Notes: a model not told the origin generated them from the sequence alone. Positions 1 through 59,862 are shown, counted from the stretch's first letter. The stretch: 59,862 bases of DNA from a bacterium (GCA_043818555.1 JBDRFP010000019.1:1-59862); one strand, 5' to 3'. Translations and numbers: made by a program.

Positions 1-1
1 C

Positions 2-664
2 AGCAACGGAAACACCGACACCGGCAAGACCGAAGTCGACCCTGTGGAAGCCTGGGCCGAAGTGACCATCAACGTCACCAAGCTCGGCGAGGAAGTGACC
101 GACACGGAAGTGCACGCCAACGGGCACTACACCGGTCCACCGGGCATTCCGCTTTCGGTCGCTGTCGACCCCGAAGACGGGACGCTCTACGAACTGAAGG
201 TCGGCGACCTGTCGACCACCAGCTCCGACGGCGTGCCCATCTACAACGACGGCACGCTCGACTGGGTGACTCCCGTCCAGGAGCGCGAGCTCTTCGACGG
301 CGACTCCGCTGAAGTCAACGCCTCGCTGAACCGCTACTTCGGTGGTGAGTACGAGTGCGTCCGCGACACCTACGTGTACGACGGCTCAGCCGAAGATTAC
401 AAGGGTGAGCACTACCGCCTCACCGAACTCGATCCGCAGTGGATCGAGGTAGAGGATGGCTACAAGGTGAAGGGCCAGGACGACCCTGGCATTGGCATCA
501 TGGACAACAATGACGAGATGCAGGTGGAAGGCGATCATCTGATCCTCCTCGGTGATGACGAAGTCTATATCCTGTCATCTGAGATCGGTCAAGACGAATT
601 CACAGCGACTTTCGTCGATCCCGATTTCAGCGTCAGAGTCCTCTACTGCGAACTCGCCGACTAG
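2..664 (+). CDS. hypothetical acidic protein, 5' end outside window (GC-rich cassette I1)
   Basis: Frame 2 is open from the window edge (no stop before GTG at 44). Codons are GC3-rich and the product is very Asp/Glu-rich. Stop TAG at 662-664 is followed by a hairpin plus T-run. No family recognised. Confidence 0.6.
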   Translation, partial: SNGNTDTGKTEVDPVEAWAEVTINVTKLGEEVTDTEVHANGHYTGPPGIPLSVAVDPEDGTLYELKVGDLSTTSSDGVPIYNDGTLDWVTPVQERELFDGDSAEVNASLNRYFGGEYECVRDTYVYDGSAEDYKGEHYRLTELDPQWIEVEDGYKVKGQDDPGIGIMDNNDEMQVEGDHLILLGDDEVYILSSEIGQDEFTATFVDPDFSVRVLYCELAD

Positions 665-678
665 GCAAGCTCGCACGA

Positions 679-713
679 CCCCTTTCCTGCGCAAGCGCAG
701 GACGGGGGTTTTT
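679..713 (+). terminator. intrinsic terminator of cassette I1
   Basis: cccc..cctgc-GCAA-gcagg..cgggg hairpin followed by TTTTT, directly after the stop codon. Confidence 0.7.
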
Positions 714-722
714 ACTTTGCCT

Positions 723-764
723 ATTCGTTCCCCCCTTTTCAAGGGGGGATTAAAGGGGGGTTAG
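723..764. repeat. K-family C/G-tract hairpin element, copy 1
   Basis: attcgttccccccttttcaaggggggattaaaggggggttag. Near-identical to 25568-25610, with an inverted copy at 25650-25690. Confidence 0.7.
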
Positions 765-770
765 CGTAAA

Positions 771-802
771 CAAAAAAGACACGGCAATCCATGTCTTTTT
801 TG
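771..802. terminator. bidirectional hairpin terminator between cassette I1 and the giant gene
   Basis: aaaaaagaca..tgtctttttt has an A-run and a T-run on either side, and lies 10 nt beyond the stop of the minus-strand giant ORF. Confidence 0.6.
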
Positions 803-811
803 TTTGTTATC

Positions 812-3800
812 TTAAGGCTCTACGTAGATTGCTCCGTCATAATATACCCATGGATCATTTGCTTCACTCAATATCGATGGCCACGTGAGATACGCACATT
901 CTGCATTTTGATCATCGTAACCAGTTGGAACACTCAGCGTATCCACATCATTCTCAAAGCATCCATTCGTTCCATCGTCTCCCAATGTACACACCCCAGT
1001 ACACCAACCCCAGTTGTCGCGGATATGCACACGAGGTTGGTAAACGCACTGGCCACTCTCAACACATGGGCTGTTTGTAATATGACCGTTTTCATCCTCC
1101 TCACAATAATCTCCTGCAATTGTCATGGTATTAATAACCGACTCGCTACAAGTGTAATTATGCTGGTAAGTGAAGTAATTCGGGTCGCAGGAAGATGCAG
1201 TCATGCCCCACTCGTCGGCAGTGTCGCAGTAGGACTCGGAATGAGAGTCATCGGTAAGACCGCGGTGGTTCTTGTAATAGTTATCCGAGTCAGACGATCC
1301 TGAATATCGCTCGCTTCCAGTAGCGTCACCCCAGTCAACAATTACTCGCCTGATTGGCAACTGATCCTTATCCGCGGCCGCAAAGAACTTCATAGTTGCT
1401 CGGTAATAACCTCCACTGGCAGTCAAATCACCGGCATTGGAAGATCCAACAGTTACCGCATTTTCATCTCCTTCTCTACAATAATTACCATAACAGTTAT
1501 CCAAATCCAGCGCCCAAACAGTAGGCGGACTGCCCTCGTCACGATTATCCCACTCTGTGTGGCCTCCAGATGTTGTTTCGCTGTAACTGCCAGTGTCGGC
1601 GCTGGACTCTGAGGTGTTCCCAGTAAGTCCGTCATCAAATTGCAATACTCCGAAAGCCCTAGCGAAAAGATCGGTAATAATTCCTGCAGTTGAAATAGTC
1701 GACACTTCTGATGCCCCAGCATCTGTCCAAACTCCAAATAGATCAAAGTCGTGCTCTCTTCTACCAGACTCGTTAACATTCACTTCGAAATCAATAAACG
1801 AACGCGCTTCAGGATCGGTCAAGCTTCCAACGGCCGTACCAGCAGAACAGCTATCAAAAGGCGTTGGTCCACTTGGAGGAGTTATTATTGCCCCTCCTGT
1901 TATTGTCCTTTCACAAGATGCTATTAATGGAGGTTCGGGATCTGTACCAGATGCAGCTTCGGACATCTTTTGCGATTTACCAAATGGCTGTGTGCCCGTG
2001 CTGTAATCGTAGGCAAAGTTTTCATCGGTTACATTCAGAGTGAATCCACTATTTGAACCAAGTAGCCTATCCGTATATGGAGCTGCAGAAATATTATCAC
2101 CTTCGTCGACAACAATGGTCTGCTTACACCCAACATAAATATTTGCATCTTGATCATAGTCATACCAACCGTCAGCCGCAGAATCGCTCAAATCAGTTTC
2201 GTCAATTAATGTCTCGGTAGGTGAAAAGCTGTACCCTCTAAAGTCTTCTTCCAACTCAATTCCATATGCCGTACAGCCCTGTACTGCGTTCGCTTGCTCA
2301 GTGAAGTCATCTTCATCTTCGTAGATATAGACATCGCCGGACCATACTAATTCATCATCTGTACTTGTTGAGTAATCATTTGCATCAGTAACTGTAAATA
2401 CATCAGTGAAATATTCTGGTGACCCAATTGTAGGAACGCATGCACCGTAGTCTCCATCAATATTTGAGTTCACGGGCACGCATACAAGTGGGCAGTCGTC
2501 GTCTTCTGTCCCTCTTCCCATACAGGCTCTGGTATAGCTCCCTTCATTCATCCCTGAATCCCACATTGGTCCTAGGATTGCGTAGTGCCCTGGAGGACAG
2601 GTGAATCTATAATTTTTTTCAACACACAATGCGTAAGTTTCTTCAACGCTACCGGGCGTTGTTCCTGAAGATGTACCAATCTGCTCAACACAGGCAATGT
2701 CTGCAGTAGTTTCCCAATCGGTGCCACTTCCCGAGTCTGCATTGCTAGCAGTAACATCGGCATAAACTCCAGTATAAATACAATATTCGGTCTGTCCCTC
2801 AAAGTAACCCGCCCCTGTGTACTTGGCGTACAAGTCGGTTGAACCGAGGAGCTGGTCGACTGGGAGCCAGGAGATGCAAGCGTTCTGGTCTGGATCGCCA
2901 AGGATGTTGATGCTAGAGTCGCGTTCCAAACAGTAGCCGTCGAGTCCGAAAAGACTATCCTCTTGCATAATTGGACTGCATTCGCCCCCGCTATCCGGGC
3001 AGCTTATTCCCTGAGTGCTGCAGAAAGCTCCATCAAGCGATCCTCCAGAACAAATCCCAAGCCTTCCACTTCCAAAACCGCTCCAATCGTCGACATCTGT
3101 GCTTGTATCCAGATGCAAGTATTTTGAACTTCCTCTAGTTGATAGTTTCTTATAGCTGCAATCACAATCCTCTCCGGGAGTGCAAATTTCTGCTTGTGCA
3201 AAACCGTATTTTTTATTATATGGCTGCCACGAACGCGTTGCCTCAGTGACGTCCTCGGTGGTTTCCAACTGTTCGGTTCCGCTACTATCTATATATGACT
3301 TAAACCACTCCTGCACAACTTCATTTCCAAACGGACTTGTTGATTCTGGATAAGCTCGGCAGATTTTGGTTTCTCCGAGTTCGGCATCGAATTCGCCGCC
3401 GTCAACAGAGACAACACAATTGCCTCGGTAGCAGGCGCCGGATTGTGTGATTGTTGATTCAAAACAAACGCCGGTTGAGCATACTCCGCTAATGCCACAC
3501 GCGCCTTCGTCAGTCGTACATACGCCCGCCAAACAGAACTCATCGGCCGTTTTGTCGCAGTCGCTGTCGCTTGAGCACAGGTCGGTTGTAGAATCGTAGC
3601 AACGACCAATCACACACTCTCCTTCCGAAGCTGAACAGTCGTCACTGTTTACACACGGCGCAATGCTGTTTTCGCAGTATCCAACATAACACGAATCCTG
3701 GAAACCTCCTTCGCACTGGCCCGCATTCAAGGCCAGGCGGTAGTCGTTTTCAGTCTGAGTGTCGCAGGTTAGCGAGCCGCTGCAGTCGGAGTCGGAATCG

Positions 3801-11607: not shown

Positions 11608-12204
11608 TTACTCAATTAACACGCTCCCCTGCCTAATCACTTCCACCTCATCACCGACAATCTTAACTGTTGTCGACGGAGGTGACGCAGGCAAGTCGCC
11701 TCCATCAATAAACAAATCTGGCTTCTGGGGTCTATCTCTAAAATTTGCTTTTACATCGCGAACCGAGTAAACATCGCCGCTGCCCGACACATTCGCGCTT
11801 GTTGCCACTAAAGGTTTCCCGAGCTGATGAGTGAGGGTTGTTGCAAATGGGTGCGACGATACTCGAACAGACTGCGTGCCATCCTGACCGCAACGCTCAA
11901 CAATCGACGATCCTTCAGCTACCGGGGCGATTATGTTAAGCGCGCCAGGCCAAAATCGACTAGCAAGATCACGCGCAGCTTCGGACAAGTCGACAAAATC
12001 GCTCGCGCTATCAACCGACGGGATCAAAACCGGCAAACCCTTGCCACCTTCGCGGCCTTTAATTTCAAAAATACGGCTGACTGCCGATTCGTTTGTAGCA
12101 TCGCACCCAAGGCCGTAGGACGTTTCGGTTGGGAAAACCACCACACCTCCGCGCCGCAAAACCTTGAGCGCTTGTTCAATTTGTTCGCTTGTTATTTGAA
12201 GCAT
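11608..12204 (-). CDS. tsaC: L-threonylcarbamoyladenylate synthase, YrdC/TsaC type
   Basis: VVFPTETSYGLGCDA and IFEIKGR..GLPVLI are typical of the Sua5/YciO/YrdC domain. At 198 aa it is the single-domain form. Confidence 0.8.
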   Translation of the reverse strand: MLQITSEQIEQALKVLRRGGVVVFPTETSYGLGCDATNESAVSRIFEIKGREGGKGLPVLIPSVDSASDFVDLSEAARDLASRFWPGALNIIAPVAEGSSIVERCGQDGTQSVRVSSHPFATTLTHQLGKPLVATSANVSGSGDVYSVRDVKANFRDRPQKPDLFIDGGDLPASPPSTTVKIVGDEVEVIRQGSVLIE

Positions 12205-12337
12205 ACTTTCGCTGGAAATGAGCTGTTGAGAAAATAGAAAGTGGTAATGTAAAACAGAAAGAAGAAAATCGCTTTCGACAACTAATTTCTAATATCTTTT
12301 TTCTATTACGAATCTCCAATCTCCAAACAGCTACTTT

Positions 12338-13270
12338 TTATTGTAGGCGAGCCCGGTACCAATCTACCGTTCGGGCTAACCCGGTTTCTAAATCGACTTG
12401 CGGACTCCATTTCAATTCTTTCTTGGCCTTGCCAATATCTAACACAATGCATTTTAGAAGATCCTTAACATCGCGGCGATACTCAGGCTTGGCTTTCGAC
12501 CCTACCGCAGCGCTTACCATTTTATAGATTTTGTCAGTCCGAGTTTCAATGCCTGTTCCAACGTTTGCAAAACCAACATAGCTACTTTTACCAGCCTGTA
12601 CCAGCGCGTTCACAACATCGCCAACGTACACATAATCGCGCGTTGTCTTGCCATCATTGTTGATGAACGCTTTCTCACCCTTTAAAAGTCGGTTTGTGAA
12701 TACTGTGATTACGCCAGACTCGGCGCTCGAATCCTGCCGCGGCCCGTACACATTGCCAAATCGTAATGCGACCGTTGAGAGTCCTCGCTCGCGATTGAAA
12801 AAGTCCAAGTACCACTCACCCGCCAGCTTGCTGTAACCGTACGGCGTCATTGGCTTGGCGTCCATACTCTCGTTCACCGGCAACTTTTTCTGAATCCCGT
12901 ATGCCGCACAGCTGGACGCAAATACAAGTTTCTTTGCCTTGCTTGCCGAAGTCGCTTCGCAAACATTGATTGTGCCGAGGATATTATTGTCCGCATTCAT
13001 GACAGGTTCGCGTACGGATTCGCGGTCGTCAATATGAGCTGCAAGATGATACACCGCTTCAGGCTTGATCTTTTTAAACGCGCTCGCGAGCTTAGGGTCG
13101 CGAACATCCATGATCTGATATTTAACATGTCGATCGTTGATCTTCCGATTCTTGTCCGGCTTTTGTTTGTCGATCACAACAACTCGTTGACCATCCTTAA
13201 TCAGCGCCTCGACTAAGTGCGAGCCAATAAAACCCGAGCCGCCGGTTACAATTGATGTTTTGTTCTTCAT
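12338..13270 (-). CDS. NAD-dependent epimerase/dehydratase (GalE-like)
   Basis: Rossmann motif VTGGSGFIGSHL and catalytic YGYSK. 310 aa. Confidence 0.8.
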   Translation of the reverse strand: MKNKTSIVTGGSGFIGSHLVEALIKDGQRVVVIDKQKPDKNRKINDRHVKYQIMDVRDPKLASAFKKIKPEAVYHLAAHIDDRESVREPVMNADNNILGTINVCEATSASKAKKLVFASSCAAYGIQKKLPVNESMDAKPMTPYGYSKLAGEWYLDFFNRERGLSTVALRFGNVYGPRQDSSAESGVITVFTNRLLKGEKAFINNDGKTTRDYVYVGDVVNALVQAGKSSYVGFANVGTGIETRTDKIYKMVSAAVGSKAKPEYRRDVKDLLKCIVLDIGKAKKELKWSPQVDLETGLARTVDWYRARLQ

Positions 13271-13319
13271 ATAACGTTAGAATATCATTTTGTGTCGTCC
13301 GGCTCAACAGCCTTGCGAA

Positions 13320-13397
13320 GTGATTGAGTGATTTCTACGAGAGGCGAAAGTGATTGAGTGATTGAGTGAATCGAATCACTTAGTCACTTAATCACTG
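13320..13397. repeat. B-family word hairpin (gtgattgag / ctcaatcac)
   Basis: gtgattgagtgatt..gtgattgagtgattgagtgaatcg is followed by its inverted form cgaatcacttagtcacttaatcac. Family members lie at 26049-26086, 32446-32522, 52571-52614, 56829-56868 and 56936-56970. Confidence 0.75.
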
Positions 13398-17718: not shown

Positions 17719-17751
17719 AAAAACCCCGGCGCGATGCTTGATCGCTCCGGG
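17719..17751 (-). terminator. terminator of the CCCH-repeat gene (cassette I2)
   Basis: cccggagcgatc..gatcgcgccggg hairpin followed by a T-run on the minus strand, starting 7 nt after the stop. Confidence 0.7.
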
Positions 17752-17757
17752 ATTGAT

Positions 17758-18609
17758 TTAGGATCGTTTCTTTATCCTCCTAACAGGCGCCTGCACTGCG
17801 GCCCAGTCCTCCATCGGCTCCGGGCGGTTGTGCGACCTCCAACGTATGTAGTGACTAAAGCAAAGCATCTTAGAGCGTTTAGGCTCATCGCACTCAGACA
17901 CCAGGCACCTGGGAAAATCTTCCGGCAACTGAAATCCTTCCAACCTTCCACGCCTCCATTTGCCCTCATGCCTTTCGCAAAAGCCATTGGACCCATGAGG
18001 GCTGTCACAGCCAGGAACTTTGCAGCCTTCCTGATTTTCTCTGACAGGCCCCTGCGTCCTTGCCCACTCCTCACGCGGTTCAGGACGACCACCACTACGC
18101 CACCGCAAATAGTGCCCGGAGCAAAAACCGCTTGAGTCGTGTTCGCGATCGCAAACCGGAACCATGCAGCCAACACATTTTTCTTTTGGCCGCCACCTCT
18201 CTCTGGGCTCAGGACGCCCCTGCCTGTCCCATGCGCGATAGTGCTTGTGACAAAAACCTTCAGCTTGAAGCCCCAAATCGCAATCGTCCAGACTACATCT
18301 GGAATAATTGTCCGGCAAAGAAAAGCCTTGAAGAGTCCCTCTGAGCAACTTCTGAAAGTGCTTGATACAGAAACCAATGGAGTCGTGTGGATTATCACAC
18401 TCGGGAACTTTACAGCCCTTGCGCCGCTTATGCTTCTTGATCGGCTCCTGTGTCTTTGCCCACTCTTCACGAGGCTCAGGACTGCCATCTTTGTACCATC
18501 TTATATAGTGACTAGCGCAAAACCCTTTAGAACCATGATCTCTATCGCAAACCGGCACCATACAGCCAATGTACTTGATCGGACGGCCTCGTTTCTTTTT
18601 CTCGCACAA
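17758..18609 (-). CDS. protein made of six tandem CCCH zinc-ribbon-like modules (cassette I2)
   Basis: 283 aa with six units of the form C-x2-x-C-x8-9-(G)FC-x2-H(Y/F)..RW, arranged as (A-B-C)x2. TTG start at 18609 with GAGGTG upstream. A TTGACA-17-TAAGTT promoter lies upstream. Confidence 0.75.
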   Translation of the reverse strand: MCEKKKRGRPIKYIGCMVPVCDRDHGSKGFCASHYIRWYKDGSPEPREEWAKTQEPIKKHKRRKGCKVPECDNPHDSIGFCIKHFQKLLRGTLQGFSLPDNYSRCSLDDCDLGLQAEGFCHKHYRAWDRQGRPEPRERWRPKEKCVGCMVPVCDREHDSSGFCSGHYLRWRSGGRPEPREEWARTQGPVRENQEGCKVPGCDSPHGSNGFCERHEGKWRRGRLEGFQLPEDFPRCLVSECDEPKRSKMLCFSHYIRWRSHNRPEPMEDWAAVQAPVRRIKKRS

Positions 18610-18640
18610 ATTTCACCTCACTTTTAAAGATCGAGCGATA

Positions 18641-18669
18641 AACTTAGCAGGGATTGGAGGTTGTGTCAA
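18641..18669 (-). promoter_or_regulatory. sigma70-like promoter of cassette I2
   Basis: On the minus strand: TTGACA (18669-18664), 17-nt spacer, TAAGTT (18646-18641). Confidence 0.55.
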
Positions 18670-24765: not shown

Positions 24766-24794
24766 TTGACAAAAACCCGGGTTTATGATAAATA
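24766..24794 (+). promoter_or_regulatory. sigma70-like promoter of cassette I3
   Basis: TTGACA (24766-24771), 17-nt spacer containing the palindrome aaacccgggttt, then TGaTAAATA (extended -10). AAGGAG SD at 24811-24816. Confidence 0.6.
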
Positions 24795-24821
24795 TCACCC
24801 GCACCTTAACAAGGAGACAGC

Positions 24822-25508
24822 ATGGAAATCCGCGCATACCTCAAAGAAGCGTCGTTTGGAGACCTGGAACACCGGCTCTACATCAACGGCATTCAAGTTC
24901 ATCTTGACTTAGGCCGACACTATGTGGTGATCAGCGGACCCGACCATCACGTTCCCAGAGTCCTCCGTGAGCACATCACGCATGCGACCTGCATGGCAAA
25001 GGTCGAAGTTCCCAGCTTCGTACCCAGACGAGCATTCTACGATGGGAATAACTGGAATGCCGAGGTGATGAAAGATGGAGACCGGCTAATCCTGGAGTTC
25101 TATGGGGTAACCGTGCGCAAACTACTATATGGCTGGGGTTATGTCCTCTCCGGCGAGTACGACAAGCATGCCGAGATCGCCGGGATCGACCAAGAGCTCG
25201 CGGAGAAAAAGCGCCAACTCGCCGATGTGTGTCGCGAGATCAAGATGGCCGACGAACTGCTCGAGGCTGTACGTGCCAACCTTGTCGACGCCAAGGTGGT
25301 CGGTAGCTCTACTGGCAAGGTCGACCGGATACCGCTGACCGATGAACAGAAAGCGAAACTTGGACGTCTGCGAACGGTGCTCGAAAACCGTGACTCCGAC
25401 ATCATCGAAAGTATCCGTCATCTCATGATGAATGTGTGCGATTGCGGATCTTTCCCTACGGGAAGCCTGCTCAAAGACCTGTGCCTACTGGTCGACGAGA
25501 ACCTCTAG
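24822..25508 (+). CDS. hypothetical protein (GC-rich cassette I3)
   Basis: 228-aa ORF with ATG 6 nt after AAGGAG. Codons are GC3-rich. A coiled-coil-like middle region is present (QELAEKKRQLADVCREIKMADELLEAV). No family recognised. Confidence 0.7.
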   Translation: MEIRAYLKEASFGDLEHRLYINGIQVHLDLGRHYVVISGPDHHVPRVLREHITHATCMAKVEVPSFVPRRAFYDGNNWNAEVMKDGDRLILEFYGVTVRKLLYGWGYVLSGEYDKHAEIAGIDQELAEKKRQLADVCREIKMADELLEAVRANLVDAKVVGSSTGKVDRIPLTDEQKAKLGRLRTVLENRDSDIIESIRHLMMNVCDCGSFPTGSLLKDLCLLVDENL

Positions 25509-25523
25509 TCGTCCGAACCTAAA

Positions 25524-25560
25524 CCCCGCATCGAGCTAAGCTCGACGCGGGGATTTTATT
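25524..25560 (+). terminator. terminator of cassette I3
   Basis: ccccgcatcgagc-taa-gctcgacgcgggg hairpin followed by attttattttt. Confidence 0.75.
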
Positions 25561-25567
25561 TTTCTTC

Positions 25568-28710: not shown

Positions 28711-28739
28711 TTGACATCAAGGCCAACATATAATAACAT
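28711..28739 (+). promoter_or_regulatory. sigma70-like promoter of cassette I4
   Basis: TTGACA (28711-28716), 17-nt spacer, TAACAT (28734-28739). AGAGGAG SD at 28760-28766. Confidence 0.5.
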
Positions 28740-28770
28740 CGTCTCTCGTTCATTAAACAGAGGAGTAGCC

Positions 28771-29157
28771 ATGCCTGAATGGATCTTCGGAATCATTGTA
28801 GCGCTCAATGCCCTGACGGCCGTTTGTCTTGTACTCTTAGTGATCCTCTCGCTAGTACAAGCATTCATCACGCTAGTCGTATCGACAATTGCTACTATCA
28901 ACTCCGTTCTGTACCACAAGTACAAGTCTCGAGCCGGCAGAGTTGGTGGCTACACCTACTCCAAAGCAATCGAAATCGCTCGAGCAATGGAGCGCGGCGA
29001 CTACGATTCAATGCCGGATGCGCTATACGAGATCATGGTCATATCGGCCACCCTTGTCGACCATTGCGCCGGGGAAGCATCCAAGTTGCCACAAGACCAA
29101 CTCGAAGTCATCCTTGAAGAGCTCAACGAGGCTCTCATGGTACCTCGCATCTACTGA
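28771..29157 (+). CDS. hypothetical small membrane protein (cassette I4)
   Basis: 128 aa from ATG 28771, placed 5 nt after the SD. The N-terminal hydrophobic stretch WIFGIIVALNALTAVCLVLLVILSLVQAFITLVVSTIATI is followed by a soluble acidic tail. The longer ORF from 28705 is rejected. Confidence 0.6.
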   Translation: MPEWIFGIIVALNALTAVCLVLLVILSLVQAFITLVVSTIATINSVLYHKYKSRAGRVGGYTYSKAIEIARAMERGDYDSMPDALYEIMVISATLVDHCAGEASKLPQDQLEVILEELNEALMVPRIY

Positions 29158-29173
29158 ACGCATACCGTGCCCA

Positions 29174-29197
29174 AACGCCCCCGAGGGCGTTTTAATT
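29174..29197 (+). terminator. terminator of cassette I4
   Basis: aacgccc-ccga-gggcgtt hairpin followed by ttaattt. Confidence 0.65.
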
Positions 29198-29258
29198 TAC
29201 AAAAAACAGGCCGGGGCCCGGGACTAGAAACTATGACTGTAACAATTACTATGACAAC

Positions 29259-39612: not shown

Positions 39613-39650
39613 GCAAACAAATAACCCCGCATCCTGTTACAGATGCGGGG
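39613..39650 (-). terminator. terminator of cassette I5
   Basis: ccccgcatc / gatgcgggg is a 9-bp stem (39625-39650), followed on the minus strand by ttatttgtttgc. Confidence 0.75.
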
Positions 39651-39671
39651 TCGAACGACTTGACGACGACC

Positions 39672-39833
39672 TCAGGCCGCCGCCTGCTCCTCCGGCGCTT
39701 CCGCGCCGGCGATGAGGCCGTTGATCACGGCCGCTGCCGCGACGGAGGCGAGATCCTCGTCTTCGTAGAGAGCGAAGAACTCGTCGTAGAACAGGGAAAT
39801 AATGAGGTCGCCGATGGTTGTTCCGGTGGGCAT
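39672..39833 (-). CDS. small acidic protein, 53 aa (cassette I5, gene 3)
   Basis: ATG at 39833 lies 5 nt after GGAGGG (alternative ATG at 39845). Codons are GC3-rich (MPTGTTIGDLIISLFYDEFFALYEDEDLASV..). The stop is followed by the terminator. Below the ORF-track length cutoff. Confidence 0.5.
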   Translation of the reverse strand: MPTGTTIGDLIISLFYDEFFALYEDEDLASVAAAAVINGLIAGAEAPEEQAAA

Positions 39834-39886
39834 AATGCCCTCCATTTTTTGGGGTTAAGACTCCGCTGAGTGGTCGATCGAATCAG

Positions 39887-39943
39887 GTCACCCGGTGATG
39901 GACGGAGACAACGCGTAAAACGCGAAGTCCGTCACCGGGTGAC
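39887..39943. promoter_or_regulatory. 17-bp inverted repeat (operator-like or 5'-UTR hairpin) upstream of I5 gene 3
   Basis: gtcacccggtgatggac (39887-39903) and its complement gtccgtcaccgggtgac (39927-39943) match at 16/17. Each half contains the near-palindrome GTCACCnGGTGAC. Confidence 0.6.
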
Positions 39944-40017
39944 GAATCATCGACCGCTCGGCGTAGTCCCCAATCCCATGCAAGCACAGGATTGGGAGAC
40001 GGATGTCGGAGAGAGCG

Positions 40018-40611
40018 CTAGGAGTCGCCCTTGGTCGGGCCGGTCAGGAGCGGGATCCGTTTCTGTCCGTCGATCGCCCGCTTACGCAGGTTCTCGCTGG
40101 GCGAGAATCGAACCAGAACCTTGTGCTCAGCCAAGTCCAGCTCAGCGTTGCCGTCGGTCCAGAGGCCGGTTCCCTCCATCTTCTCAATGACCATCCCGAG
40201 CGCCATCACCTCGGAATATCGGAGGTTGGGCCTCGGTGGAATGAAGTCCTGGACTTCGATCTCCACGTACTGCTCGGTCGGAACCCACTCGCGCATGATT
40301 GTCACGCTCACATACGCGATCATCTTCTCGGCCATCTCCTTCACCTCTTCCTGCAGCTGGCGCCGCCTCCACAGTTCCTTGATGGCAGGAGCCACCAGGA
40401 GCATCTGGATCACCTCATCGAAGATGACGAGGGTGAGGAAGTCCCAGATATGGCTGAGCCCGGGGATAAGACCCATGAGCTCAAGGGCGATGAAGATGAT
40501 TGCGTTGATGAAGATCCACGTCTGAAGCGCAGCAGTAGACCTCTGCTTCCAGAATTCAGTAGCCACCCAGGCCACGAACTCCCTGGCGTTCTCTTTTGCA
40601 CTTGGCGCCAT
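40018..40611 (-). CDS. hypothetical membrane protein, 197 aa (cassette I5, gene 2)
   Basis: ATG at 40611 lies 5 nt after AAGGAGG. Two N-terminal TM helices are followed by a soluble C-domain. Codons are GC3-rich. No family recognised. Confidence 0.7.
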   Translation of the reverse strand: MAPSAKENAREFVAWVATEFWKQRSTAALQTWIFINAIIFIALELMGLIPGLSHIWDFLTLVIFDEVIQMLLVAPAIKELWRRRQLQEEVKEMAEKMIAYVSVTIMREWVPTEQYVEIEVQDFIPPRPNLRYSEVMALGMVIEKMEGTGLWTDGNAELDLAEHKVLVRFSPSENLRKRAIDGQKRIPLLTGPTKGDS

Positions 40612-40665
40612 TGGCACCTCCTTTTTTTTGTTTTGAATTTTTGACTCCGCTAAATTGTCGACGAT

Positions 40666-40705
40666 GTCACTTGGTGCCGGACGATGTAGTCCGACACCGA
40701 GTGAC
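40666..40705. promoter_or_regulatory. 17-bp inverted repeat upstream of I5 gene 2, paralogous to 39887-39943
   Basis: gtcacttggtgccggac and gtccgacaccgagtgac match at 15/17. The flanking gactccgct..gtcga and gacgaat.gtcgac..ctcggc blocks are shared with the other module. Confidence 0.6.
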
Positions 40706-40730
40706 GAATTGTCGACTTCTCGGCAGAGAC

Positions 40731-40748
40731 CTGGAGCGGCCGCTCCAG
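40731..40748. repeat. perfect 18-bp palindrome ctggagcggccgctccag
   Basis: Read directly from the sequence. Lies in the I5 gene 1 / gene 2 intergenic region. Confidence 0.9.
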
Positions 40749-40880
40749 ATACTCAGCGGTTCTGGGAAGAACTTATTGAAGTGTCGATTCTGCAATCAAC
40801 CTCTCAATGAGTTCCCCGTACCAGACTTCCAGCTTGCGCTAGAAATGGGTACGGGGACGCTTTAACTTGAAGGAGCGGGG

Positions 40881-41900
40881 CTAGACGAACGCGCCGTCGA
40901 CGGACTGCCACCAGGACCGGGGCCGGCGGCCGCCTTCGTGGCGAGCCCACTGAGGACCGCGCCAGTTGCGCTCGACGGGCTTGCGAGACCCGTCGTCGCT
41001 GCAGTACTCCAGCTCGCGCTGGCGCAACTGCTCGGAAACGATCTCGGCGTCGAGCATGCGCTCGATTGCCTCGATCGTGTCCTCCACGATGACCTCGGGA
41101 TTGTGCCTCAGCCGACCGAAGTCGACGCCGAAGTCGTAGTCCCAGAGCTCGTCGGGCTCGTAGTCGTAGTCCTCGTCCAGGTCGTAGTCGTCCCACTCGA
41201 GGGCTCTGTCGAGGACATAGTCCTCGTCGTCGTCCAGGGCGTTGAGCGCTTCACAGCAGGAGTCGCGTCGCGACTCCTGCTGCAAAAGCGTCTCTTCGGC
41301 CTCGTAGTCCCATTCCTCGGCTTCGGCTTGCGCCTTGGCCTCGGCCTCCATGTCCTCGAAGACGGCCCAGGGGTCGGTGTCCTCGATCATGTCGGCGTTG
41401 GGCTCGACGCGGATACGAGCGCCCTTGTGGCGGGCCCACTGGGGACCGCGCCAGTGTCGCTCGGCCGGAGGGTCATCGCACTTGCCCTCCCACTGACTGT
41501 TCCGCTCGTCGAGCTTGCGCTCGGCTCGAGCAGAGAGTCGACGCTCGATGTCGTCGATCTCGGCCTCGCAGTCGTCGTCTTCGCTCTCCTCGTACATGTC
41601 GGCCATGTCGTTGTAGCGGTCGAGGCCGTGGTCTTCGTACTCATCGCTGTCGTCCCAGACTTCGATCTCCTCGTCGCTCGGCGCCACCATGTCCTGGTAG
41701 TGATCATTGAGCATGTGGAAACCGACTTCATCGATCGGGATCCAGTTGCGCTCCGGGTCGTCGACGCGCATGTCCTCGGACGGACCCAGGAGGTTTTCCC
41801 AGGCCCAGTCTTCGAGGTCAAGTGCGTTGGCATCGCCAACGGGCAGCGCCCCGGACTCGGACGAATGGAACTCGCGGCCTTCTGCTCCAGAATTGAGCAT
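40881..41900 (-). CDS. highly acidic repeat protein, 339 aa (cassette I5, gene 1)
   Basis: ATG at 41900 lies 7 nt after AAGGAG. GC3 bias is strong. Asp/Glu/Trp-rich, with a duplicated ER(H/N)WRGPQWARH(K/E)G motif. The ORF-track extension to 42083 is a translated A-repeat. Confidence 0.75.
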   Translation of the reverse strand: MLNSGAEGREFHSSESGALPVGDANALDLEDWAWENLLGPSEDMRVDDPERNWIPIDEVGFHMLNDHYQDMVAPSDEEIEVWDDSDEYEDHGLDRYNDMADMYEESEDDDCEAEIDDIERRLSARAERKLDERNSQWEGKCDDPPAERHWRGPQWARHKGARIRVEPNADMIEDTDPWAVFEDMEAEAKAQAEAEEWDYEAEETLLQQESRRDSCCEALNALDDDEDYVLDRALEWDDYDLDEDYDYEPDELWDYDFGVDFGRLRHNPEVIVEDTIEAIERMLDAEIVSEQLRQRELEYCSDDGSRKPVERNWRGPQWARHEGGRRPRSWWQSVDGAFV

Positions 41901-42044
41901 GTCCTGTCTCCTTGGTTGTTTTTTTATTGAAGTTAAGAAAACTATTTTGACTCTTTTACAAGCCATGTTTGTGGTCTTTCTAAAGCCGCAATCATGGATT
42001 GTAAATGCTATCTGTTTGGGAACCGACCGATACAATGTAGCTAA

Positions 42045-42153
42045 TGTCCAATCCCCAATTATCAATTCCCAATGAATTCCCAATTCCCAATCTCCAATTG
42101 GTCATTGTGCATTGGATATTCATTGGTTATTGGGTGCTTGTGAATTGATCATT
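42045..42153. repeat. A-family element, copy A4
   Basis: tgtccaatccccaattatcaattcccaatgaattcccaattcccaatctccaattggtcattgtgcattggatattcattggttattgggtgcttgtgaattgatcatt. Confidence 0.8.
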
Positions 42154-42420
42154 TAATGAGCCAACAAAATGCCACACTTTGGCTCTTCTGATGGAGAAAG
42201 CGGTTTATGCCTAATCACAGAAAGCCCAAAATGTGGCTTTTTCTTACAGCCCGATGAAATCAGGCTAACTCTCTCCCCAGAAAGTATTGAATTGTAAGCT
42301 TCAATTTAACACTAATACTATACCACATTTTGACGATTTTGTCAAGACCTAAACCTACTGAATTCCGCCAAACTTAGCAAAATTAACTTTACTAATCCTA
42401 GCCACTTTTCAGCCCAACGA

Positions 42421-42629: not shown

Positions 42630-42810
42630 GGTGCTTAGCCGAATATGCATATATTATCAATATTTCTACTAATAATAGCGCTGACCTTGGAATTCAAGGG
42701 ACTGCGCACAAAAGACTGGGATTTTATTTATGGCGGTATGGCTTTGTTTTTTGCCGCTGTGGGTACTGGTATGATTAGCTTATTCATTTTCCAAACACTT
42801 TACTAAAAGT

Positions 42811-43116: not shown

Positions 43117-43117
43117 T

Positions 43118-43549
43118 ATGGAAGACGCCCTCGGCTATACGCTGTTGGTAACCATGTTCTGGTTTCCAATATACTGGATATTCGGCGGCGTCTTTTTTGC
43201 TACTGTAGCGATCTTTAAAATCATCAAGTTACGCAAAGCCCGATTCAGTTGTTTGTTCACAGTGCTAACCGCCGGAGCAGCCTACGCAGCAGCGCGCGCC
43301 GGAATGATGTATGGCGAGCGGCAAATAACCGAATGCCTGGAACAAGCTGACGGATTCTTCAATGCGATCGCCAGTGTAATTGCATGCGGGGTTCTAGAGC
43401 TGTCACTCGCCGGGCTTGTAGGATTCCTGCTGTTGCTAGTTGCCGGTTTTGCAGCTTTGTTTGTATCGCGCTCAGGAAACGGTTCATGGATTGATGCTGA
43501 CTTTGGCCTGAAGCAAGAAGTGGCAGAGGAGATTGAGTTTGAGGAATAA
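43118..43549 (+). CDS. hypothetical membrane protein
   Basis: 143 aa with 4 TM helices and an acidic C-terminus. Its ATG is part of the right-hand TATG flanking the GIY-YIG element. Confidence 0.6.
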   Translation: MEDALGYTLLVTMFWFPIYWIFGGVFFATVAIFKIIKLRKARFSCLFTVLTAGAAYAAARAGMMYGERQITECLEQADGFFNAIASVIACGVLELSLAGLVGFLLLLVAGFAALFVSRSGNGSWIDADFGLKQEVAEEIEFEE

Positions 43550-43565
43550 GTTTAAAGAAATAAAA

Positions 43566-43598
43566 CAAAAAACTCCGTACATCAGTACGGGGTTTTTT
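43566..43598. terminator. bidirectional terminator
   Basis: aaaaaactccgtac-atca-gtacggggtttttt lies between the + strand membrane-protein gene and the minus-strand tRNA-Val. Confidence 0.7.
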
Positions 43599-43674
43599 GG
43601 TGGGTGTGAGAGGACTCGAACCTCTGACCTCTTCGATGTCAACGAAACGCTCTAACCAGCTGAGCTACACACCC
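43598..43674 (-). tRNA. tRNA-Val (anticodon GAC)
   Basis: Acceptor gggtgtg/cacaccc, anticodon loop ttGACat, T-loop ttcgagt, encoded CCA. Confidence 0.9.
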
Positions 43675-43730
43675 AGGATCGTCATTATTGTATGTTTTGA
43701 CCACGCTGCTGTCAAGAGACGGTACGATCA

Positions 43731-43766
43731 AAATAAAACCCCCGCGACCTTAAACGGTACGCGGGG
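43731..43766 (-). terminator. terminator of cassette I6
   Basis: ccccgcgtacc..ggtcgcggggg hairpin followed by a T-run on the minus strand. It overlaps the stop of the 76-aa ORF. Confidence 0.65.
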
Positions 43767-43980
43767 AAGGTTCGGGCAAGCGGAACATGTGCACGACGAC
43801 AGTAGATGCGCTGATGAAAAAGATTAGAACAGCCAATCCTGCCCAGCATACTGTGAGCACCACGATGCCGGTTGACAGACAGGTAGTTTTGATCGGCAGA
43901 AGAAGAAAGAACTTGAAAGCGCGTCTTTTGCGCGAGGGCGGCCTGCAAAGCCGCTGGATAATCCTTGAACGAATTCCCAC
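43750..43980 (-). CDS. small basic/hydrophobic membrane protein, 76 aa (cassette I6, gene 2)
   Basis: GTG at 43980 lies 3 nt after AAGGAGGT. A basic N-terminus is followed by a ~40-aa hydrophobic stretch. Confidence 0.5.
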   Translation of the reverse strand: MGIRSRIIQRLCRPPSRKRRAFKFFLLLPIKTTCLSTGIVVLTVCWAGLAVLIFFISASTVVVHMFRLPEPSPRTV

Positions 43981-44016
43981 GGTACCTCCTTACGAGAACC
44001 TTAGCAGAAAATAAAT

Positions 44017-44048
44017 CAACCTTCAAGGTTTCTGAACCTTGAAGGTTG
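44017..44048. repeat. J-family perfect hairpin
   Basis: caaccttcaaggtt-tctg-aaccttgaaggttg has a 14-bp perfect stem. It lies between the two genes of cassette I6. Confidence 0.85.
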
Positions 44049-44059
44049 CGATCGGCGCC

Positions 44060-44689
44060 TTACGCGGCCCAAAGGCTCGCGTCCGGCAGCTCCACGTAAA
44101 GCATGCCATGCATGGTCGACACGCGGCGGAGATACCCAGCCTGCGTGAGTACGTAGAGAATCTCGGAAGTCGGTACAACAATGTTGAACCTGGCATCGTG
44201 TTCTGGCCCAGAGATAAGCGTGGAAAGACACGCAAGCTGTTCACCCTCCTTGCCGTCGCTCACGAACACGCCCATATACCCACGCTCAGGAAACTTAACT
44301 GCCCCGCCGGGCTCGACTCCGAGCTGCACCAAGGCGCAGTGCAGAAGTCCTGTGCCAATCGGCTTGGCCTCCACGAAATGGCGTAAGAACTTCTGGAACA
44401 TTGGCCGAAACACGCCGTACCAAGTTCCCTTCGGCCTTACAATCGCCTCGGCCGCAATCGCTTCGCGCAACAGCGCCTCGCAACTCACGCCCTCCAGGTC
44501 CACACGCATCCCCCCTTCCTGCGCATACAGGCAAAGCGTGCCGTCGACTTCTATGTAGTCGACCTCCACGTGCGGATGAAAACAGTTTACGCCGCCAATC
44601 GGCGAATCTGCATTGCTATTTATGCCCACCGGTTGCGCCGGTACCACACCATCCCTGAACTTCACCTCTGTAATCACTCCATCGCTCAT
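44060..44689 (-). CDS. hypothetical protein, 209 aa (cassette I6, gene 1)
   Basis: ATG at 44689 lies 5 nt after AGGAGGT. Codons are GC3-rich. The ORF-track extension to 44896 is rejected. No family recognised. Confidence 0.7.
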   Translation of the reverse strand: MSDGVITEVKFRDGVVPAQPVGINSNADSPIGGVNCFHPHVEVDYIEVDGTLCLYAQEGGMRVDLEGVSCEALLREAIAAEAIVRPKGTWYGVFRPMFQKFLRHFVEAKPIGTGLLHCALVQLGVEPGGAVKFPERGYMGVFVSDGKEGEQLACLSTLISGPEHDARFNIVVPTSEILYVLTQAGYLRRVSTMHGMLYVELPDASLWAA

Positions 44690-44714
44690 CTTTACCTCCT
44701 TCTGATGGCTGAAT

Positions 44715-44743
44715 AATGTATCACTTTCCGCCGAATTTGTCAA
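44715..44743 (-). promoter_or_regulatory. sigma70-like promoter of cassette I6
   Basis: On the minus strand: TTGACA (44743-44738), 17-nt spacer, TACATT (44720-44715). Confidence 0.55.
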
Positions 44744-56822: not shown

Positions 56823-56870
56823 GCCTGAAGTGATTGAGTTATTGAGTGGTTGAGTAATTAAGTAAAGCGA

Positions 56871-56897
56871 AAGACGAGTCGGAAGGCTCGTTTTTTG
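56871..56897 (+). terminator. rnj terminator
   Basis: aagacgag-tcggaagg-ctcgtttttt hairpin plus T-run, flanked by B-family word arrays at 56829-56868 and 56936-56970. Confidence 0.65.
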
Positions 56898-56977
56898 CTT
56901 ATAAACTCTTATTGTTGCTATAATATCGCTATGGCAACTCAGTCACTAAATCACTCAGTCACTAAATCACTTCTGAT

Positions 56978-58009: not shown

Positions 58010-58038
58010 TTGACAAAGCGGGTTTTATATTTTAGACT
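58010..58038 (+). promoter_or_regulatory. sigma70-like promoter of cassette I7
   Basis: TTGACA (58010-58015), 17-nt spacer, TAGACT (58033-58038). The -35 element lies in the loop of the trpS terminator-like hairpin aaagcctgc..gcgggtttt. Confidence 0.5.
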
Positions 58039-58110
58039 CTCCCTATCGCCCTCCCGGGGGAAGGCGATACAACGGTCAGTCCCCAACAACCAGCTGCAAA
58101 AGGTGTAGTA

Positions 58111-58743
58111 GTGGAAACCTCCCGCCAACCTCCCGCCTCCTCATTCGATGGAGGCTCGACCGCTTCTCCTGGCCACCCGGCCACAGCCCCGCGTTCATTG
58201 CGCCATACGCAAACGCCCCGAGACCGCCGCGATGTGCTCTCCAAGGCCATCCGCGACAAGATCGGCGACGGCGCGAAGATCGACTGCAAGACCGGGGCCA
58301 TGCTCGCGATCACGGTCAAGATGGTCGAGCTGTTCGGCTACGACGGGAAAAGCATGGATGCGCTCGAAACCTTCGCCGATCGCGCAATGGGTCACGAGTT
58401 CAGGAACCTGGACGAATTCGCCAGTGCTCTCCCCGACCTCGGCCCGGCGCAGGCCCTGGTGCTCAAGAACCGACTTCATGTCCTGCCCGCAACCGAACCT
58501 GGCAGCGTGCAGGCCGCAATGGCAAACTTCGTCGAGAGGTTCGCCGTGCGGTACCCTGACGCCATCGCCCTTTGGGAGCGCGCACTCGACCGCATCGCAA
58601 GCGGCGAGATCGCCAACCACGCCGCGCTCGCGAGGGCGCTGCCCGTGTACTTCCAGAACACGTGCCTGGCAGATGGAGAGCTCACTGCCGCAAGCAGCCG
58701 CGCCTTTCACGGCAACGGCCGCAAGCTCCAGTCTCTGATCTAG
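58111..58743 (+). CDS. hypothetical protein, 210 aa (GC-rich cassette I7)
   Basis: GTG at 58111 follows AAGGTG. Among three overlapping long ORFs, this frame has the strongest GC3 bias. A terminator follows. No family recognised, and the start is uncertain. Confidence 0.6.
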   Translation: METSRQPPASSFDGGSTASPGHPATAPRSLRHTQTPRDRRDVLSKAIRDKIGDGAKIDCKTGAMLAITVKMVELFGYDGKSMDALETFADRAMGHEFRNLDEFASALPDLGPAQALVLKNRLHVLPATEPGSVQAAMANFVERFAVRYPDAIALWERALDRIASGEIANHAALARALPVYFQNTCLADGELTAASSRAFHGNGRKLQSLI

Positions 58744-58761
58744 CCGACCCGCTCGGCACCC

Positions 58762-58790
58762 GTGCCCCCAGACGCAAGTCCGGGGGCATT
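58762..58790 (+). terminator. terminator of cassette I7
   Basis: gcccccagac-GCAA-gtccgggggc hairpin followed by atttatt. Confidence 0.7.
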
Positions 58791-58795
58791 TATTA

Positions 58796-58824: not shown

Positions 58825-59014
58825 TCACGAGTTCAGGAAACAAGACAATCGCTTCAAGCTTGGCTTGATGAGGAAAGTCCGAACACCGCATGCGTGGTAA
58901 CGCGCATGTAAAAAAGAGCGTTGCTAACGGCAACCGGGCGAGTGTAATTTGAGGAATTAGATCTATTCCTTGATAGCGTGAAGCCTAGGGAAAGTGCCAC
59001 AGAGACAATACTAA

Positions 59015-59165
59015 CCAGTGCTTCGCACTGGAATGATCAATGACCGAATATTCAATCTCCAATGAATACCCAATGTTTAATAACCAATGAAAATTGGGAA
59101 TTGAGAATTGGAAATTCATAGAGAATTGAAACTTGGAAATTGGACATTCCGATGCGGAGCATCGG
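59015..59165 (+). repeat. A-family-derived insert 1 inside rnpB (P12 position)
   Basis: 151 nt, bounded by the hairpins ccagtgc-ttc-gcactgg and ccgatgc-gga-gcatcgg. The core consists of ccaat / attgg words. Confidence 0.85.
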
Positions 59166-59317
59166 TGAAACGTGAAAAGTTCGATGGTGTCGCTTGCGGC
59201 TACATCGATCGCCCCGTGGTGACGCGGTGGCGTGGTAAACCCACTCTGGTGAAAGAGCAAATTTGGTAGCTCGATTGAGGCGTCTGGCAACAGGCGTCCT
59301 AGACAAATGATTGTCAG

Positions 59318-59468
59318 CCAGTGCTTCGCACTGGAATGCTCAATGACTAAACATCCAATCTCCAATGAATCCCCAATGTCCAATAACCAATTAAGATTGG
59401 GAATTGAGAATTGGAAATTCATTGGGAATTGGAACTTGGAAATTGGACATTCCGATGCGGAGCATCGG
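59318..59468 (+). repeat. A-family-derived insert 2 inside rnpB (between the P2 and P4 3' strands)
   Basis: 151 nt, with 13 substitutions and no indels relative to insert 1 (hand alignment). It shares ccaatgaatccccaatg and attcattgggaattgg with intergenic copy A2. Confidence 0.85.
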
Positions 59469-59508
59469 CCTACAGAATTCGGCTTATTCGTTTCCTGAAC
59501 ATCAAAAA

Positions 59509-59535
59509 AACTCACGCAAGTGAGTTCTTTTGTTT
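59509..59535 (+). terminator. rnpB terminator
   Basis: aaaaaactcac-GCAA-gtgagttcttttg. Confidence 0.7.
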
Positions 59536-59540
59536 ATAAA

Positions 59541-59574
59541 GAAATTCCCCACACCTTCTTGCGAAGGTGTGGGG
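59541..59574 (-). terminator. terminator of cassette I8
   Basis: ccccacaccttc-GCAA(rc)-gaaggtgtgggg is a 12-bp stem, followed by aatttcttt on the minus strand. Confidence 0.75.
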
Positions 59575-59590
59575 AAGAGAACGCAGGAGA

Positions 59591-59862
59591 TCAGGTCACA
59601 GGTACTACTACACTCCCGCGGGAGACAACGCCATCGCACGAGTTCCTGACCTCAACGTGATTGGCGCTTAAGCTAGGCTGCGAGAAGCCGAACCAGCCCG
59701 CGTCGGGCGCGCTGACCTCGTCGTAACGCGAGCCTGGCAGATCTACGCCATGGTGTCGGAGAACTTTCTCGTGCTCAACCGGCAGGTGGAGGCCTTCGCA
59801 GGTAACGAGTCCATACTCGTCGTCCGCGTGGTTGTCCATCCACCAGGCGACCGTGTGGTCGG
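59591..59862 (-). CDS. hypothetical protein, N-terminus possibly outside window (GC-rich cassette I8)
   Basis: The frame stays open to the window edge beyond the ATG at 59839. Codons are GC3-rich. The stop at 59591 is followed by the terminator. No family recognised. Confidence 0.55.
   Translation of the reverse strand, partial: DHTVAWWMDNHADDEYGLVTCEGLHLPVEHEKVLRHHGVDLPGSRYDEVSAPDAGWFGFSQPSLSANHVEVRNSCDGVVSRGSVVVPVT

Follow-up and report, generated by a model that had tools for sequence, protein, structure and literature searches.

Why should a small bacterial genome of intermediate base composition carry short, GC-rich genes among its housekeeping operons, and does their composition mark them as recent arrivals? 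The question is raised by a bacterial DNA (JBDRFP010000019.1 of assembly GCA_043818555.1), a complete metagenomic contig of 59,862 bp with an overall G+C content (GC) of 0.49, the whole of which is referred to here as the window. A first-pass annotation of this sequence described at least eight GC-rich, self-contained expression cassettes, designated here C1 to C8, and considered that they might reflect recurrent, recent uptake from a high-GC donor, perhaps an actinobacterial host or its phages. The present analysis leads elsewhere. A recent origin from such a host or phage is contradicted in the case of C5 and C6, and nothing supports it for the remaining cassettes. On balance, and with a confidence that is only modest, the GC-rich stretches are better regarded as accessory transcription units of a Patescibacteria (Uhrbacteria-like) lineage that are kept GC-rich by a lasting local force.

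The genomes nearest to the window are metagenome-assembled genomes of Patescibacteria, the closest being a Candidatus Uhrbacteria assembly (L003) with protein identities of 87% for UvrA and 66% for RluD. The relatives were compared as short genome pieces (loci L001-L011). Pfam scans of the open reading frames (ORFs) of the window, every long one included, identified a backbone typical of a reduced housekeeping gene set, together with five tRNA genes and rnpB. The cassettes within it are arranged as follows, with lengths in nucleotides (nt) or amino acids (aa).

1..713, plus strand: C1; ORF truncated by the contig start (2-664, 3' part), terminator with GCAA as its loop at about 676-713
17719..18669, minus strand: C2; promoter 18669-18641, ORF 17758-18609 (283 aa), terminator at about 17722-17752
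24766..25560, plus strand: C3; promoter 24766-24794, Shine-Dalgarno (SD) site, ORF 24822-25508 (228 aa), terminator 25524-25560; divergent from nusA
28711..29200, plus strand: C4; promoter 28711-28739, ORF 28771-29157 (128 aa), terminator; directly after tRNA-Leu(gag)
41901..42345, minus strand: C5 promoter and leader; promoter 42345-42317 (TTGACA-17-TATAGT with a TG extension), 417-nt leader
39620..41900, minus strand: C5; three-gene operon with terminator 39623-39652, convergent with the CCA-enzyme gene
40881-41900, minus strand: C5a; 339 aa, net charge -68, two NWRGPQWARH motifs
40018-40611, minus strand: C5b; 197 aa, membrane protein
39672-39833, minus strand: C5c; 53 aa, acidic
43725..44743, minus strand: C6; promoter 44743-44715 (TTGACA-17-TACATT), between rluD and tRNA-Val(gac)
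Parts of C6, minus strand: C6a 44060-44689 (209 aa); hairpin 44017-44048; C6b 43750-43980 (76 aa, membrane protein), then a terminator
58010..58795, plus strand: C7; promoter 58010-58038, ORF 58111-58743 (210 aa, GTG start), terminator at about 58752-58795
59545..59862, minus strand: C8; ORF truncated by the contig end (59591-59860, 3' part), terminator 59545-59576 with GCAA as its loop

Without the eight stretches, the window has a GC of 0.480, and the earlier hand counts of 45/60, 39/60 and 28/60 G+C in single printed lines proved exact on recount. Five stretches (1-713, GC 0.599; 39613-41915, 0.604; 43731-44743, 0.548; 58010-58790, 0.636; and 59541-end, 0.606) lie above every equal-size backbone window, and a sixth (24766-25560, 0.537) is matched by 0.6% of such windows. 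The two that had been called weaker, 17719-18669 (0.518) and 28711-29197 (0.503), are matched by 5.6 and 27%, respectively, and fall inside the backbone distribution, such that the claim of GC-rich stretches stands for six of the eight. The G+C content at third codon positions (GC3) was found to be 0.507 ± 0.039 for 33 backbone genes. Against this, C1 (0.78), C5a (0.84), C5b (0.80), C5c (0.81), C7 (0.79), and C8 (0.72) deviate strongly (z = 5.5-8.7), and C3 (0.65) and C6a (0.68) moderately (z = 3.7-4.4, with 3.7 for C3). The strong GC3 bias ascribed to the cassette ORFs in general does not extend to C2 (0.54, z = 0.9), C4 (0.60, z = 2.3), and C6b (0.58), all with z ≤ 2.3. Tetranucleotide distances rank the cassette ORFs in broadly the same order as GC3. 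The GC pressure is regional and not codon-specific, because amino acid usage is also shifted and the untranslated parts of the cassettes are GC-richer (0.51-0.67, compared to 0.45 for non-coding DNA overall). Thus, relative to the backbone, Lys falls from 5.8 to 3.2%, Ile falls from 6.4 to 4.7%, and Arg rises from 4.9 to 6.1%; overall, Lys, Ile, Asn and Phe are depleted and Arg, Asp, Glu, Pro and Trp are enriched. Both C- and G-ending codons rise in the cassette ORFs.

Conserved synteny at the same GC in relatives, which the first-pass annotation had itself named as evidence against recent acquisition, was found for C5 and C6, the two largest cassettes. In L003, a C6 unit lies between rluD and tRNA-Val, as it does in the window. 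Its TTGACA-N17-TACATT promoter precedes the gene for a homologue 42% identical to C6a, and this gene and the next one, which encodes a small membrane protein, are each followed by a terminator; an orthologous C6 unit occupies the same place in L004. Beside tRNA-Ile of L003, the same promoter as that at window position 42345 is followed by a leader conserved over approximately 190 nt. Behind this leader are encoded an acidic protein of 396 aa that contains a QWARH motif and a homologue of C5b (E = 2e-28). In L010, the CCA-enzyme gene is adjoined at its 3' end by a C5b homologue, one further ORF and a homologue of C5c; in L001, a three-gene GC-rich unit, the last gene of which is a C5c homologue, adjoins the same 3' end. 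Overall, C5b orthologues were identified in L003, L009, L010, and L011, and C5c orthologues in L001 and L010. A gene transferred recently would be missing from the syntenic position in relatives, or closer to its donor than the divergence of the backbone allows; C5 and C6 instead have syntenic orthologues. Between the window and L003, the cassette proteins are 32-42% identical, compared to 52-87% for the flanking housekeeping proteins, and this lower conservation is the opposite of what a recent shared import predicts.

The first approximately 190 nt of the C5 leader are highly conserved with L003 (12714-12900; window 42120-42345, minus strand, inclusive of the promoter) and fold well (z = -4.1), and no Rfam family was matched; judging from its sequence, this segment may act as a regulatory leader of the C5 operon or represent a small RNA without a name. 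The region that separates the C5 and C6 slots contains a block that is composed of tRNA-Ile, a small membrane protein and tRNA-Val(gac) and is inverted or rearranged among the relatives (window 42553-43674, L001 13208-14112, L002 11786-12595, L003 11114-12194), with the tRNA-Val of the window flipped with respect to that of L003.

The relatives also revealed gene turnover at the same intergenic slots. Nothing occupies the rluD slot in L001 and L011, and in L002 this slot contains an unrelated GC-rich gene (211 aa); the slot between the genes for L19 and UvrA (L19/uvrA) is occupied only in L002, and GC-rich units encoding M23 peptidases are present in L002 and L005. Genes of the C1 family were found in four independent groundwater assemblies (L005-L008) with the layout of promoter, hairpin, SD site, ORF and terminator, and the member from an unrelated groundwater genome has TTGACA-N17-TATTCT upstream and a hairpin with a T-run at its end.

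The second line of evidence is the GC excess itself. In all seven related genome pieces with a measurable backbone, the cassette genes are GC-richer than their own backbone, with GC3 values of 0.53-0.91 against 0.33-0.59 among the pieces sampled. In L003, where the backbone GC3 is 0.33, the C5 and C6 cassette genes have values of 0.53-0.78. The excess of C5b is +0.29 in the window, +0.30 in L003, +0.27 in L010, and +0.29 in L011 (logit difference, 1.14-1.35), the backbone estimates for L010 and L011 being based on two genes each; that of C6a is +0.17 and +0.20. With cassette orthologues only 32-42% identical, synonymous sites should be saturated and GC3 should be near equilibrium, so that a nearly constant excess over each backbone points to a local force toward GC superimposed on the genome-wide mutation bias. 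A single old transfer should have ameliorated by now, and if the genes were fresh imports from one pool, it is their absolute GC3 and not their excess that should be the same.

An exhaustive phmmer search of 1.84 billion representative proteins returned 62 non-self homologues in five families, comprising approximately 35 clusters for C1, about 18 for C8, 7 for C5b, 3 for C6a, and 1 for C7; C3 found only itself. All of the homologues that carry a name are from Patescibacteria or Ca. Uhrbacteria, with one cluster of the C8 family being named 'Patescibacteria group bacterium'. No tblastn match to ten concatenated cassette proteins (C2 left out) was obtained among 50,697 phage and 72,556 plasmid records, the C5b, C1, and C8 families yielded nothing in scans of IMG/VR, and a metagenome scan with the C5b family returned three short loci. 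The earlier statement that the cassette genes belong to no recognizable family applies to the GC-rich ORFs, which like their homologues gave no Pfam, PHROG or PADLOC match; C2 matches the Cys-rich N-terminal module of phage HNH endonucleases.

The anatomy of the cassettes was, for the most part, as first described. The pattern TTGACA-N17-TANNNT occurs eight times in the window against an expectation of 0.38, and its sites precede C2, C4, C5, C6, C7, two tRNA-Val genes and rnpB; the promoter of C3 is TTGACA-N17-TAAATA. A perfect TTGACA with 17-nt spacing had been reported for five of the six cassettes whose upstream region is in the window, and correctly so. The exception was thought to be the stretch 39613-41915, for which a consensus promoter was now located on the minus strand at 42345-42317; it appears to have been overlooked because the genes lie on the minus strand and the promoter is 417 nt upstream of C5a. 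SD sites of the AAGGAG type were seen at every unit, and GC-rich hairpins followed by T-runs at every cassette end, four of which are the top-ranked matches of a terminator scan. The near-consensus SD sites, the terminators and the three GCAA loops (C1, C7, and C8) of the earlier description were all recovered. The jump in GC starts directly after the -10 box and stops at the terminator. With their own promoter and terminator around one or a few ORFs, the cassettes do form self-contained units beside tRNA genes and rnpB with the layout of phage morons.

These observations may be combined into a model. Each unit would be insulated, with a sigma-70 consensus promoter ahead of its one to three short ORFs, strong ribosome binding and an intrinsic terminator at its end, and hence its expression should be independent of the housekeeping operons on either side. 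The promoters are presumably strong, because the same class drives the tRNA genes and rnpB of the genome. The products look like envelope or interaction proteins and not enzymes, the supposed classes being an all-beta lipoprotein (C1 family), small membrane proteins (C4, C5b, and C6b) and very acidic soluble proteins (C5a and C5c), and the M23 peptidoglycan hydrolases of the GC-rich units of L002 and L005 would be counted with these envelope-type products. The units would fill the few permissive intergenic slots, beside RNA genes and at operon ends, and their inheritance would be mixed, partly vertical, as for C5 and C6, which are syntenic in relatives, and partly by gain, loss or replacement. 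High G+C would then be a lasting property of this class of gene. As its cause, GC-biased gene conversion at recombination-prone, fast-evolving loci would be preferred.

Several points weigh against this interpretation. Recombination-linked differences in GC3 in bacteria reportedly amount to only a few percentage points, compared to the 17-45 encountered here. In the C1 family, GC3 does not track the backbone, being 0.78 where the latter is 0.51, 0.82 where it is 0.37, and 0.91 where it is about 0.5, and the genes at the C5a position have values of 0.84 and 0.78; a shared GC-rich pool fits the C1 and C5a numbers better. The similarity of C5a to its positional counterpart in L003 is limited to short motifs. 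With no homologue of C3 and a single one of C7, nothing shows these two cassettes to be old. The comparison rests on short pieces of few relatives, and the protein functions are guesses made from composition, signal peptides and membrane segments.

The main rival, which is considered less likely, is that the cassettes are continually replaced from a GC-richer pool inside the clade, namely higher-GC Patescibacteria or their unseen plasmids or phages. Natural transformation and homologous recombination through the conserved flanks (tRNA genes, rnpB, and housekeeping genes) would provide the route, and the high GC would be a renewed, incompletely ameliorated donor signature. Such replacement would account for the different, unrelated GC-rich genes that slots beside tRNA genes and rnpB hold in different relatives, and for the similar absolute GC3 (0.78-0.91) of the most GC-rich families whatever the backbone. 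The range of backbone GC3 within the clade (0.33-0.59) suggests that richer lineages may exist, the codon and amino acid usage of the cassettes resembles that of an ordinary high-GC genome, and the contig breaks inside two cassettes, consistent with strain-level variability. Import from one pool would not be expected to leave C5b with a constant excess, which spans only +0.27 to +0.30 over four genomes, or to do the same for C6a, and the greater divergence of the orthologues than of their flanks, together with promoters and a leader conserved at the junctions, argues for long residence. Moreover, no family member was found in a uniformly GC-rich context among the few contexts retrieved, and the three families scanned (C5b, C1, and C8) were present on no viral contig.

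It is improbable that the cassettes were acquired recently and repeatedly from a high-GC source beyond the phylum, such as an actinobacterial host or the phages of that host, as morons or as promoterless segments captured behind resident promoters. The abrupt onset of GC-rich sequence after the -10 box and its end at the terminator would suit such capture, as would codon usage like that of high-GC bacteria, and C3, without relatives, and C7, with one, might be young. The syntenic, GC-rich orthologues of C5 and C6, the restriction of named homologues to Patescibacteria, the lack of any phage or plasmid match among the GC-rich cassettes, and the faster divergence of cassette proteins than of the backbone argue against it. 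The remaining pointer to a donor of this kind was C2, with its 'CCCH' motif. On the minus strand at 17758-18609, C2 encodes seven Cys-rich modules in tandem, each with the pattern C..C..(G)FC..HY.RW..G, that resemble those of actinophage HNH endonucleases, and the module does match HNH-endonuclease PHROGs, but only over their Cys-rich N-terminal part (e.g., positions 6-80 of 171). The matches to actinophage HNH genes are weak and come from a phage library made up mostly of actinophages, and C2, the sole phage-linked cassette, is not compositionally deviant. No Pfam match to an HNH catalytic domain was found in C2, which, from its sequence, may be a free-standing, zinc-finger-like DNA-binding array.

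Equally doubtful is selection on the transcript or its translation, in which very high expression would favor GC- or C-ending codons or a GC-rich mRNA for reasons of efficiency or stability. The near-consensus promoters shared with tRNA genes and rnpB, and the coincidence of the GC-rich domain with the transcribed region, are in keeping with it. So too are the strong preference for NNC over NNT codons (TTC, 0.89; ATC, 0.77; AAC, 0.79) and the frequency of C at third positions of the cassette sense strand (0.45), which is far above that of G (0.31). Expression-linked codon bias was nonetheless rejected, as the classical highly expressed genes of the window, groEL (0.46), groES (0.46) and that for L19 (0.48), sit at the GC3 of the backbone. 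In addition, G-ending codons are favored for Lys, Glu, and Gln, and this, with the shift in amino acid usage, indicates a general GC pressure rather than optimal codons. Transcription-associated mutation was also considered as a cause and set aside, the sense strand being C-rich and not G- or T-rich, which is the opposite of the usual skew. That chimeric assembly or contamination brought GC-rich pieces of a different organism's DNA into the contig is very improbable: the contig is metagenomic and both of its ends lie inside GC-rich ORFs, but the junctions are functional, with resident-type promoters, SD sites and terminators exactly at the borders, and the same arrangements recur in independent NCBI, Logan, ENA and JGI assemblies (C6 in L003 and L004; C5 in L003 and L010; the C1 family in L005-L008).

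The cassettes share features with several known systems. Phage morons are likewise single ORFs or short operons of deviant composition with their own promoter and intrinsic terminator, and are accessory and usually of unknown function. Unlike them, the cassettes are not associated with a prophage and have housekeeping and RNA genes as their neighbors. Their synteny extends across diverged genomes, and they belong to families absent from the phage collections searched. A location within a prophage or phage genome was not found: the window ORFs scanned are otherwise those of housekeeping genes, with no PHROG match among the GC-rich cassettes. The earlier observation that the window holds no integrase, transposase or phage structural gene was confirmed among the ORFs scanned, and no phage structural, integrase or repressor gene was detected in the relatives examined either; repressor genes were likewise not found in the window.

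Genomic islands have been reported in groundwater Patescibacteria (PMC12455944), and hundreds of them are reported to be carried by Patescibacteria. The tRNA-linked islands and islets resemble the cassettes as compositionally deviant accessory DNA that lies beside tRNA genes and is patchy among relatives. The cassettes differ from these in their size (0.3-2.7 kb), in lacking an integrase and a duplicated tRNA 3' end, and in that several of them are old and syntenic, with a steady GC excess instead of amelioration. No direct repeat of a tRNA 3' end was found, the tRNA-derived repeat families (D14 and D19, among the largest 20 of at least 60 families) being the tRNA genes themselves.

Integron cassettes, and the clusters of attC sites lacking integron integrases (CALINs), are similarly modular and consist of small ORFs that are mostly of unknown function, and C5 has long imperfect intergenic hairpins. 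In contrast to integrons, the units are scattered over 60 kb, each with its own promoter and terminator and with no intI. The hairpins occupy the intergenic spacers of C5 (39834-40017 and 40612-40880, minus strand), where a GCGGAG motif is located 25-35 nt ahead of the next start codon; the motif is shared by the L001 unit at the same place (11867-11976 and 12310-12420). The hairpins and the motif occur only between the C5 genes, and neither a RYYYAAC/GTTRRRY pair nor a shared core site of the attC type was recognized in a search made without a covariance model. The other cassettes end in plain terminators. An integron origin was thus rejected, given that the C5 hairpins and GCGGAG are not found at other cassettes, that no intI is present among the ORFs scanned, and that each unit has its own promoter.

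The closest parallel in composition is the enrichment of GC3 through GC-biased gene conversion (Lassalle et al., 2015; PMC4450053), which is also gene-specific, strongest at third codon positions, and not accounted for by optimal codons, and which comes on top of a mutation background biased toward AT. The effect in the window differs in being much larger (17-45 GC3 points) and confined to a small class of accessory genes, the measurements made here being those of composition.

Further details were obtained for individual cassettes. The C1 product is acidic (net charge, -38) and represents the C-terminal ~210 aa of a family of predicted lipoproteins of 230-310 aa, lipobox N-termini being present in P0009, P0010 and P0015. 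An AlphaFold2 (AF2) model of C1 is all-beta, with a predicted local distance difference test score (pLDDT) of 81; it gave no significant PDB match, only a generic beta-sandwich likeness to viral proteins. The C4 protein has an N-terminal membrane segment. C7 is situated between trpS and the rnpB promoter, and its one distant homologue, P0016, has the N-terminus ME(T/S)SRQ in common with it. The C8 ORF encodes the last 89 aa of a protein whose family members are approximately 250-280 aa long, and the structure model for this family is poor (pLDDT, 54.5). Neither the C8 nor the C6a family gave a match when its profile was compared with the PDB. Directly 3' of the terminators of C1 and C3 is a motif of approximately 45 nt, TTCGTTCCCCNCTTTTCAARGGGGGATTAAAGGGG, at 716-765 and 25562-25608; these are its only two copies in the window, and it may represent either a repeat of the genome or a border that the cassettes have in common.

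The backbone genes surrounding the cassettes are the following.

Backbone genes, first part: groES/EL, RF1, KsgA, YidC, NusA, ArgRS, TyrRS, ValS, CCA-adding enzyme, RluD
Backbone genes, second part: Cmk, L19, UvrA, pilin of the type IV secretion system (T4SS) type, RNase J, TrpRS, SecG, a giant protein of 3,024 aa

Many of the intergenic spacers consist of short periodic 'word' repeats, namely units of the CCAAT/ATTGG type, AGTGATTGAGTGATT, and AGGTTTATTAT, which occur in both orientations and throughout the contig.

Examples of word-repeat spacers: 27398-27552, 30014-30139, 33764-33889, 42041-42166, 51754-52003, 13315-13396, 32450-32521, 56825-56971

The rnpB gene (58833-59502, plus strand) is 670 nt long, compared to 367 positions in the Rfam model. 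It contains two direct repeats of 151 nt (59015-59165 and 59318-59468) that are 91% identical and made of the same CCAAT-type words as many intergenic spacers, and it thus looks like an rnpB that carries an internal expansion. Two ORFs of the homing-endonuclease type, one LAGLIDADG and one GIY-YIG, were found in the window. The first (27730-28470, plus strand) is a low-GC (0.42) ORF flanked by tRNA-Val(tac) and tRNA-Leu(gag), and its LAGLIDADG-like match is weak (E = 5e-6; 27.1 bits, compared to a Pfam cutoff of 22.5 bits); it looks like a homing-endonuclease insertion, because the two tRNA genes are only 98 nt apart in L001. The second encodes a GIY-YIG nuclease of 103 aa (52042-52353, plus strand), a 93%-identical, frameshifted copy of which lies beside tRNA-Ile (42807-43120). 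The pair 42807-43120 and 52038-52352 (93%) was considered as the template and variable repeats of a diversity-generating retroelement (DGR) and rejected, since the differences are not adenine-specific and the sequences are the GIY-YIG gene and its frameshifted copy. A DGR composed of bAvd and a reverse-transcriptase gene is present in L003 (1539-2994), where it adjoins the T4SS-pilin gene as well as a GC-rich ORF (275-1045; GC3 0.71); no reverse transcriptase was found at the corresponding place of the window.

Compositional islands in reduced genomes are routinely read as recent transfer and, in episymbionts, also as a clue to the host. That shortcut fails here, where the same GC-rich genes occupy the same places on backbones almost 0.2 GC3 apart and do so with a steady excess. 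As a tentative generalization, and one more doubtful than the account of the window itself, Uhrbacteria-like Patescibacteria may keep a compositional compartment of strongly promoted, fast-evolving accessory genes whose GC3 is held about 0.2-0.45 above that of the genome over the long term by a gene-specific force and not by import. This force might stem from hotspots of gene conversion that are tied to neighboring RNA genes, or from selection acting on either the DNA or the transcript; a bolder variant, in which composition is tuned for use in a GC-rich host cell, is not favored. If the proposal were true more widely, GC-based island callers would over-call transfer in genomes of the candidate phyla radiation (CPR), inference of hosts from 'foreign' composition would be unsafe, and these small genomes would offer a clean natural system in which to measure a local GC force, be it gene conversion or selection, against a known mutational background. 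The cassettes also provide a short list of lineage-specific, probably highly expressed proteins that are candidates for functions in the envelope or in interaction with the host.

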